Virus record (IMG/VR): IMGVR_UViG_3300027313_000002
Location: 13,293-77,292 of that record
Direction: 5' to 3' (one strand)
Source: a virus
Length of the DNA stretch: 64,000 nucleotides
Position numbers and translations under genes: made by a program. Shown in pieces: positions 61,961 through 62,284 of the stretch. The stretch's first letter is position 1. Each line of letters starts with the position of its first letter. Below the pieces are notes generated by a model. It searched no databases, was not told where the DNA came from, and was given only the letters and a program-made list of their open reading frames with translations.

Positions 61961-62284
61961 CGAGCCGGCCTGTAAGCCGGATTCTGTCCCCGTCGCGAGG
62001 GGACGGCCATCCATCTATGCCGCCTACCTGCGACATCGGACGGGCCGCCCATCGTCGCTGTCTGGCGTTGCTCCCGGCAGGGCTTGCCTAGCTACCGCGG
62101 TCACCCGCGGCACTGGTGGTCTCTTACACCGCCGTTTCACCCTTACCCGGCCGGAGCCGGGCGGTCTGCTCTCTGTGGCGCTATCCCGCGGGTCACCCCG
62201 GGTCGCCGTTAGCGACTGCCGTGCCCTCCGGAGTCCGGACTTTCCTCGATGTCAAGATAACACCGCGGCCGTCCGGCCGGCTCG
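61961..62284 (-). ncRNA. rnpB: RNase P RNA, bacterial type A, lacking P18
   Basis: GAGGAAAGTCCGGAC; ACAGAATCCGGCTTA; CGCCACAGAGA; AAGGGTGAAACGG; P1 CGAGCCGGCC/GGCCGGCTCG. Confidence 0.95.

Follow-up and report, generated by a model that had tools for sequence, protein, structure and literature searches.

The window analysed here, a stretch of 64,000 nucleotides (nt) corresponding to positions 13,293 to 77,292 of the IMG/VR virus record IMGVR_UViG_3300027313_000002, carries a gene for RNase P's RNA subunit on its minus strand, within a dense array of tRNA genes. The record, from an uncultured soil phage of high-GC actinomycetes, is linear, 77,292 base pairs (bp) long, with a CheckV completeness of about 53% and a G+C content of 64-77%. 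RNase P RNA, which trims the 5' end of new tRNAs, is counted among the housekeeping ribozymes common to all cells; from viruses, tRNAs, tmRNA and translation proteins are known. The original prediction, made from the letters of the window, had proposed a type A RNase P RNA at 61961-62284. This identity has been established by a scan of the whole window against Rfam (cmscan): positions 61957-62284 of the minus strand match RF00010 (bacterial RNase P class A) with 263.7 bits and an E value of 7e-85, the gathering score being 100 bits. The alignment spans model positions 1-367 without truncation and is the sole RF00010 match in the 77,292-bp record. The predicted locus was right, and its extent, given as about 324 nt, fell 4 nt short at the 3' end. 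The gene and its parts are arranged as follows:

61957..62284, minus strand: RNase P RNA gene, class A, 328 nt, 69% G+C (Rfam RF00010)
62234..62242, minus strand: 5' strand of P4, RNA nt 43-51, AAG-U-CCGGA with bulged U46, within the invariant GAGGAAAGUCCGG block (alignment and pair check)
62075..62221, minus strand: complete specificity (S) domain, P7-P14, RNA nt 64-210 (cmscan alignment, pairs verified)
62026..62028, minus strand: GGU of loop L15, RNA nt 257-259, invariant in the four phage copies described below
62018..62019, minus strand: junction of the P18 deletion, between RNA nt 266 and 267 (cmscan alignment)
62009..62018, minus strand: J18/2 (AUAGAUGGAU), matching the family consensus and conserved in the phage clade
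61988..62001, minus strand: small P19-like hairpin between P2 and P4, RNA nt 284-297, found in the window and in the related records G005 and G086, and not in the related record G004
61974..61981, minus strand: 3' strand of P4, RNA nt 304-311, UCCGGCUU (cmscan alignment and pair check)

The helices of the RNA were taken from the cmscan alignment, with the two pseudoknots (P4 and P6), absent from the nested structure line of Rfam, added, and were checked pair by pair; 111 of the 112 pairs are canonical. P1, P2, P3 (8 bp), P4-P9, P10/11 and P12-P17 are all formed. The signatures named beforehand, namely the P4 strands, an S domain with P12-P14 and the L15 GGU, are present at definite RNA positions, and the molecule displays the characteristic features of its class; (i) nt 38-48 read GAGGAAAGUCC and nt 298-312 read ACAGAAUCCGGCUUA, and the P4 pseudoknot runs from A43-U311 through A51-U304 with U46 bulged; (ii) the S domain follows the type A plan, with P12 of 9 bp closed by a UCCG loop, P13 of 6 bp with a GUAAGAG loop and P14 of 9 bp with a GUGA loop, while L8 is UAACG and L9, like L14 a GNRA loop, is GUGA; (iii) the P15-P16-P17 arm is complete, and P6 pairs G59-C62 with G240-C243 in L17; (iv) the near-universal blocks of the family are kept, including GAGGAAAGUCCGG and ACAGAA-CCGGCUUA (the P4 strands), J18/2, J11/12, J12/13, the GCAA of J5/15, the AAC of L8 and the GGU of L15. 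In bacterial RNase P the L15 GGU pairs with the 3'-CCA end of the tRNA, and the hallmarks of the type B RNAs are P10.1, P5.1 and P15.1. The element is therefore confirmed, far beyond what chance would produce, as a full-length bacterial class A RNase P RNA from which P18 has been cleanly deleted.

The ribozyme is located inside the tRNA array, as originally proposed, in the same orientation as the tRNAs and directly between two of them:

58999..63908, minus strand: tRNA array, 35 same-strand tRNAs, with many junctions of 1-5 nt (ARAGORN, Rfam)
62287..62360, minus strand: tRNA-Thr(GGU), directly upstream of the ribozyme, its discriminator base lying 3 nt before the first base of the ribozyme (ARAGORN)
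61897..61956, minus strand: 60-nt spacer between the ribozyme and tRNA-Gly, opening with a CCGCC-UCCG-GGCGG hairpin (sequence)
61823..61896, minus strand: tRNA-Gly(GCC), directly downstream of the ribozyme (ARAGORN, Rfam)

ARAGORN reports 36 tRNAs, 35 of them on the ribozyme strand, and Rfam gives 36 tRNA matches. Seventeen tRNA-tRNA junctions measure 5 nt or less, only six of the 35 array tRNAs encode their CCA end, and the junction of tRNA-Thr with the ribozyme reads U-CGU-CGAGCC...

The same arrangement has been found in three further virus records: G004 (a 30.9-kb fragment), G005 (162 kb, CheckV completeness 100%) and G086 (190 kb, 90%, classed as a provirus). All four have a common tRNA order, Trp-Ala-Ala-Pro-Pro-Phe-Gly(UCC)-Lys(CUU)-Leu(CAA)-Gln(CUG)-Thr(CGU)-Leu(GAG)-Gln(UUG)-Thr(GGU)-RNase P RNA-Gly(GCC), continuing with Leu(CAG)-Ser...-Ile-Met-Lys-Arg-Glu-Glu-Met-Asn-Asp-Val-Arg-Val-His-Arg-Cys-Arg, and the ribozyme always lies between tRNA-Thr(GGU) and tRNA-Gly(GCC). 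The gap between tRNA-Thr and the ribozyme is 0-2 nt in all four. On the other side, the gap to tRNA-Gly is 0-2 nt in G004 and G005, where in the latter the presumed RNase P cleavage site at tRNA-Gly falls at the last nucleotide of the ribozyme, and 60 nt and 61 nt in the window and in G086, respectively.

Outside the RNA genes, no homologue of a window open reading frame (E below 1e-8) was found in G004, compared in full, or in G005 and G086, each compared over a 19-kb stretch. The window encodes the following portal and head proteins:

55683..57284, minus strand: portal protein gene, 1.7 kb from the array (phrog_113, E 1.4e-26)
46203..47594, minus strand: major head protein gene (phrog_29, E 1.4e-23)

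This portal shares 50% identity with its counterpart in Microbacterium phage Magritte and was not found in the G004, G005 or G086 records searched; the portal of G004 belongs to phrog_12, a family different from that of the window. Since common reading frames are lacking and the portals belong to different families, the array together with its ribozyme behaves as a module in otherwise dissimilar phages, and it looks like one that is exchanged between actinophages.

The four syntenic copies were aligned on the canonical structure and examined for covariation. Standard pairs occupy 95.5% of the cells, a percentage which is inflated by the use of four sequences and a structure derived from one of them, whereas the count of double-sided pair changes is not: there are 18 such changes, against 6.5 +/- 2.0 in shuffled alignments (none of 500 reached 18) and 1-4 when the partners were slid by 1-3 columns. 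The compensatory changes are distributed over P1, P3, P7, P8, P9, P14, P15 and P16, and P4, P5 and P6 are invariant, apart from a compensatory change private to the window at the outer pair of P4, read from the alignment as A51-U304 in place of the G-C of the other three. P3 is short, with 8 bp in the window RNA and 4 bp in G004. Folding of the four sequences with RNAalifold mispaired P2 with a P4 strand, and the canonical structure was used instead. The conserved position in the array and the compensatory changes support function.

To place the gene among cellular rnpB copies, 401 genomes were compared, an even draw from the class of a metagenome-assembled genome labelled 'Actinomycetes bacterium'. 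At full length the closest cellular match, in G144, is 75% identical, and partial matches reach at best 86%, over 184 nt. The closest copy overall is viral, L034 in record G004, which is likewise 328 nt long and 80% identical over its full length. Genomes flagged as unpublished (G031, G065, G011, G064, G038, G458, G389, G121, G128, G348, G109, G092, G100 and G117) contribute to the cellular tallies; their loci were excluded from the tree and from the P18 count given below, and G144 is unflagged. A single rnpB above the cut-off was found in 78 of 81 sampled genomes, in agreement with the premise that this is normally a single-copy cellular gene. A scan of the genome collection for the P4/J5 motif returned 11 matches from several phyla, which give no indication of the host.

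The phylogeny against cellular rnpB that had been suggested as a check was calculated by maximum likelihood for 78 copies. The four syntenic phage copies form a clade (Shimodaira-Hasegawa-like approximate likelihood ratio test, SH-aLRT, 95) in which the window and G004 are sisters (96), L006, an array-borne copy, is the closest relative outside this clade (98), and the whole phage group is nested among the cellular copies of the Actinomycetes (87).

P18 is one of two struts that hold together the two domains of RNase P RNA, its GNRA loop docking into P8. In the window RNA not one nt corresponds to any of the 24 model positions of P18, and the 3' strand of P15, GGUAGGCGGC, directly joins AUAGAUGGAUGGCCGUC and J18/2, so the predicted absence of this helix is borne out. 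The length of the P18 slot was taken from the alignment of the 78 copies, 23 from viral contigs and 55 cellular. The segment from the L15 GGU to J18/2 measures 10 nt in the window and at least 34 nt in every one of the 55 cellular copies; the statement that actinobacterial type A RNAs typically have P18 thereby holds for the whole cellular sample. Five of the 23 viral-contig copies have a segment of 9-10 nt, and they represent three separate lineages: the window with L034 of G004, the pair L005/L032, and L016, the last two being placed apart from the window clade in the tree. The syntenic copies of G005 and G086 possess a canonical P18 of 8 bp with a GCGA tetraloop. Because these two retain the helix, its loss falls on the branch ancestral to the window and G004, later than the capture of the gene by phages and hence within this phage lineage.

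The two other lineages without P18 differ in their setting. L005:12670-13008 and L032:3911-4249, on huge-phage contigs of 372 and 497 kb, are identical RNase P RNAs of 339 nt with no adjoining tRNAs in the stretch examined; L016:5399-5667 is a 269-nt RNase P RNA of 47% G+C wedged between tRNAs. A scan of IMG/VR for the P18-less junction gave one match, L002, which has no Rfam match and was rejected as a chance match.

Natural loss of P18 is known in Aquificales and Chlorobium, and deletion of P18 from the E. coli RNA causes a defect in the Michaelis constant that is rescued by salt (PMC8457005). The other strut, L8-P4, is the more important one in vivo, and disruption of L18 in the G+C-rich Thermus RNA brings only about a 6-fold loss (PMC8457005). 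Taken together, these natural losses, the salt rescue, the weight of L8-P4 and the mild effect in Thermus make the loss of P18 compatible with function; the window RNA, which is G+C-rich, retains L8-P4 and would be assisted by a protein, should tolerate it. The Chlorobium and Aquificales type A RNAs resemble it in lacking P18 and the L18-P8 strut while retaining L8-P4. Their losses, in contrast, are cellular, lineage-wide and concern an essential gene, whereas that of the window lies inside a phage lineage whose sisters G005 and G086 still have the helix.

The linkage of the ribozyme to the phage has been verified in independent data. At least 23 soil-metagenome runs (2016 and 2018) hold at least 90% of the sampled words of a 1.5-kb stretch around the ribozyme. 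In three soil runs, none of them flagged as a possible source of the record, one Logan contig covers 61506-62142 (tRNA-Ser, tRNA-Leu, a spacer RNA, tRNA-Gly and the 3' part of the ribozyme) and a second covers 62113-63993 (the 5' part of the ribozyme, tRNA-Thr and the upstream tRNAs), both with 0 mismatches. These contigs have depths of 10-19, the same as the 53-kb phage contig next to them. The sole contig break within the ribozyme is the 30-nt overlap 62113-62142, a universally conserved stretch, where the rnpB genes of other organisms branch the assembly graph. Because both halves are separately joined to tRNAs of the array, a misjoin is excluded for practical purposes and the ribozyme is truly phage-borne. 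The combination of a near-identical host rnpB with a break in coverage, which would have indicated misassembly, was not encountered: the best full-length cellular copy reaches 75%, and three assemblies are free of such a break or misjoin.

As to the protein partner, no rnpA (PF00825) was detected anywhere in the 77-kb record, nor in G004, G005, G086 or phage Magritte; two of the relatives are at least 90% complete, the window record only about 53%, so that an rnpA or another partner may lie beyond the contig. The original prediction had reported its absence from the window, which these searches extend. Protein searches of the phage records also found no tyrosine integrase and no CCA-adding enzyme. 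As the phage encodes no rnpA, the host RnpA is the likely partner.

RNase P is required in E. coli to separate closely spaced polycistronic tRNAs (PMC4176162). The junctions in the window array being only 1-5 nt, cleavage at the 5' end of each tRNA would separate it from its neighbour, and with this E. coli requirement the array should load RNase P heavily, which would give a selective reason for an additional ribozyme. In the mechanism proposed, the ribozyme would most likely be transcribed within a long precursor together with the tRNAs. Processing of the 3' end of tRNA-Thr(GGU) would release its 5' end, and on its 3' side RNase P would cut at tRNA-Gly(GCC), after which the 60-nt trailer would be trimmed away. 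Co-transcription and release by the processing of tRNA ends is the simplest reading of this arrangement. The phage RNA would then pair with host RnpA, and the RNase P capacity of the cell would be raised or secured during infection.

The preferred interpretation is that the gene encodes a functional catalytic RNA subunit for RNase P, which entered a phage tRNA array through a single capture from an actinomycete host and has since been inherited with that array; to this joint statement a probability of roughly 0.7 is assigned. The proposal that the phage supplies its own 5' maturase in partnership with host RnpA is thus upheld as regards the identity of the RNA, its setting in the array and the lack of rnpA, whereas catalysis, the use of RnpA and the processing of the interspersed unassigned RNAs are inferred.

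Several observations count against this interpretation. Phage Magritte, by its portal protein the nearest relative in culture, has 24 tRNAs and gave no RF00010 match, and the gene is therefore dispensable for some actinophages with large arrays. The 5' side of the internal loop of P15 departs from the family consensus and varies within the phage clade. In the RNA run X24 the coverage of 62010-62277 is very deep and consists only of short pieces 90-95% alike, which represent the rnpB of other organisms. The need for compatibility with the protein of the host, the small covariation alignment and the incompleteness of the window record, both described above, point in the same direction.

An alternative that differs from the preferred interpretation only in the selective reason, and otherwise overlaps it, is that the phage keeps a private RNase P RNA as a replacement or counter-measure, because the host RNA becomes unavailable through phage shut-off or host defence, or because the P18-less shape shifts specificity towards zero-spacer and mostly CCA-less precursors. 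It shares the structural evidence for an active ribozyme, and it would suit an array in which few tRNAs encode CCA and the junctions are tight; the phage copies also evolve faster, with end branches of 0.12-0.45 against mostly below 0.25 in cellular copies, and the loss of P18 in three phage lineages, as opposed to none of 55 cellular copies, hints at different constraints. Nothing found here, however, points to degradation or targeting of the host RNase P RNA, and the L15 GGU and the T-loop-reading S domain are host-like, which argues against a large shift in specificity; this alternative is considered unlikely. It is far less probable still that the RNA acts as a sponge or decoy, sequestering host RnpA or another factor that binds RNase P RNA and so halting host tRNA maturation, with catalysis irrelevant. 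The lack of a phage rnpA and the conservation of the presumed protein-contact regions (P2, P3, J18/2 and P4) would agree with a decoy, yet the S domain, the L15 GGU, P6 and the bases of the catalytic core would be superfluous in it and are nevertheless invariant or compensated across the clade, and sequestration of RnpA would deprive the phage's own 35 tRNAs of 5' maturation. The weakest reading, that of a decaying passenger (a drifting host rnpB taken up with tRNA genes) or an artefact (host DNA misjoined to the phage contig), could appeal to the missing P18 as a beginning of decay, the short P3, the lack of the gene in Magritte and the break of the Logan contigs inside it, but is largely refuted by the nature of that break (a 30-nt overlap at a universal stretch, with both halves joined to tRNAs at equal depth and without mismatches in three runs), by 18 compensatory pairs with P4 and P6 invariant, by the same position in four phages with portals of different families, and by the lack of any cellular copy above 75% full-length identity.

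Beyond this clade, a scan of 2.9 million IMG/VR contigs for the 5' P4 motif yielded 33 contigs, of which 23 carry RF00010 above threshold. The ribozyme abuts same-strand tRNAs in at least 11 of the motif contigs (L006, L009, L016, L018 and L024 among them), several on records of 100-460 kb. In an independent scan for the 3' P4 motif, 23 of 99 new loci match an RNase P RNA profile, four of them array-borne; most of the 99 are chance matches. Over both scans the array-borne pattern is present in at least 15 other IMG/VR contigs; further matches, with no nearby tRNAs and with sizes typical of cells, may be cellular carry-over. Searching the ribozyme by blastn against 50,697 phage records gave only two unannotated faecal 'Bacteriophage sp.' records, MT836823.1:4069-4302 and MT835553.1:23881-24115 (INPHARED, human faeces), which align over 69% of the ribozyme at 73-77% identity and are either phage-borne or cellular carry-over. 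Megablast of 22 kb of the window against cultured phage records returned no match, and literature searches found no published report of a phage or viral RNase P RNA.

Compared to the bacterial type A RNase P RNA (rnpB, as in E. coli M1, Thermotoga maritima and RF00010), the window RNA has the same core and domain plan, with P1-P17, the P4 and P6 pseudoknots, a P12-P14 S domain, the L15 GGU, the L8 AAC and GNRA loops L9 and L14, and its Rfam score lies within the range of the sampled cellular copies (about 140-290 bits). The differences relate to genome, setting, length and protein partner. The window copy is phage-encoded and lies in a co-oriented tRNA array, in contrast to a stand-alone single-copy gene; at 328 nt, without P18 and with a short P3, it is smaller than the sampled actinomycete copies (335-440 nt); and no cognate rnpA accompanies it in the same genome. 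Retention of the RNA subunit by a reduced genome, with the protein encoded elsewhere, is also found in the organelle rnpB of plastids, jakobid mitochondria and the Paulinella chromatophore, whose RNAs likewise tend to shrink (PMC4264200, PMC3590771). Organelle genes descend from the endosymbiont, whereas the window copy would be virus-captured and would have to work with the protein of an unrelated cell during infection. Megaphages with 74 tRNAs and a tmRNA have been described, and an all-Rfam screen of circular genomes gave only tRNAs and tmRNA (PMC8172020); host-type stable RNAs of translation are clustered with tRNAs there too, without an RNase P RNA.

The remainder of the array was also surveyed. 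Six long spacers of 143-381 nt (63627-63834, 63367-63554, 61680-61822, 61242-61502, 60270-60650 and 59704-59873) interrupt it, the other gaps being 1-12 nt, and a permissive Rfam scan (E up to 0.1) of these six revealed no known RNA family. A sub-threshold YrlA match (25.8 bits against 69) at 59017-59126 overlaps tRNAs. Rfam recognizes a tRNA of 48 bits outside the main array, at 57643-57716 on the minus strand, which is missing from the ARAGORN list, and the only plus-strand call of ARAGORN, a 97-nt 'tRNA-Ala' at 59734-59830, is not supported by Rfam and probably spurious. At 63752-63885, over tRNA-Ala(GGC), three soil DNA runs show a steep rise in depth, from about 15 to 177-240, and near-identical sequence must therefore occur in many other genomes of the samples. 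This probably explains why the contig and the Logan contigs stop shortly after it; in the relatives a tRNA-Trp comes next, about 300 nt further along, and the array probably continues past the end of the contig.

A gene for a Ro60-type protein (TROVE and Ro60 vWA domains; phrog_850, 'RNA-binding protein') adjoins the Arg(CCU) end of the array in two relatives, at L084:15927-17684 (minus strand) in G004 and L087:15183-16970 (plus strand) in G086. No homologue was found in the window, the part of the record beyond its initial 13 kb, to which the search was confined. The Y RNAs bound by Ro60/Rsr proteins in cells have tRNA-like parts, and by analogy some of the unassigned RNAs of these arrays could be partners of the Ro60-type protein.

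Thus a known RNA family has been found in a biological setting that appears to be unpublished. The instance is distinguished by an almost full-size and host-like RNA, by syntenic sisters in complete large-phage genomes and by a loss of P18 that is dated, from the tree, within the phage lineage. Were a phage catalytic RNA to work with a foreign protein subunit, phages would be taking over one more function in translation, and the processing of a zero-spacer tRNA array would be explained. The clade offers natural variants with and without P18, with short or long P3 and with or without P19, on which the dispensability of ribozyme parts in vivo may be studied, and a match to RNase P RNA can no longer serve as proof that a metagenomic contig is cellular. 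More tentatively, and with rather less than even odds, these phages may have been caught in the act of domesticating RNase P RNA: an rnpB captured once into a mobile tRNA-array cassette that crosses between unrelated actinophages, its RNA released by tRNA punctuation partly through its own activity, would be shedding its peripheral struts, P18 first, at the start of a path towards phage mini-ribozymes. If this is true, phage RNase P RNAs would form a natural minimisation series of a universal ribozyme, and large phages would control the 5' maturation of tRNA themselves, possibly countering host shut-off or tRNA-directed defence.
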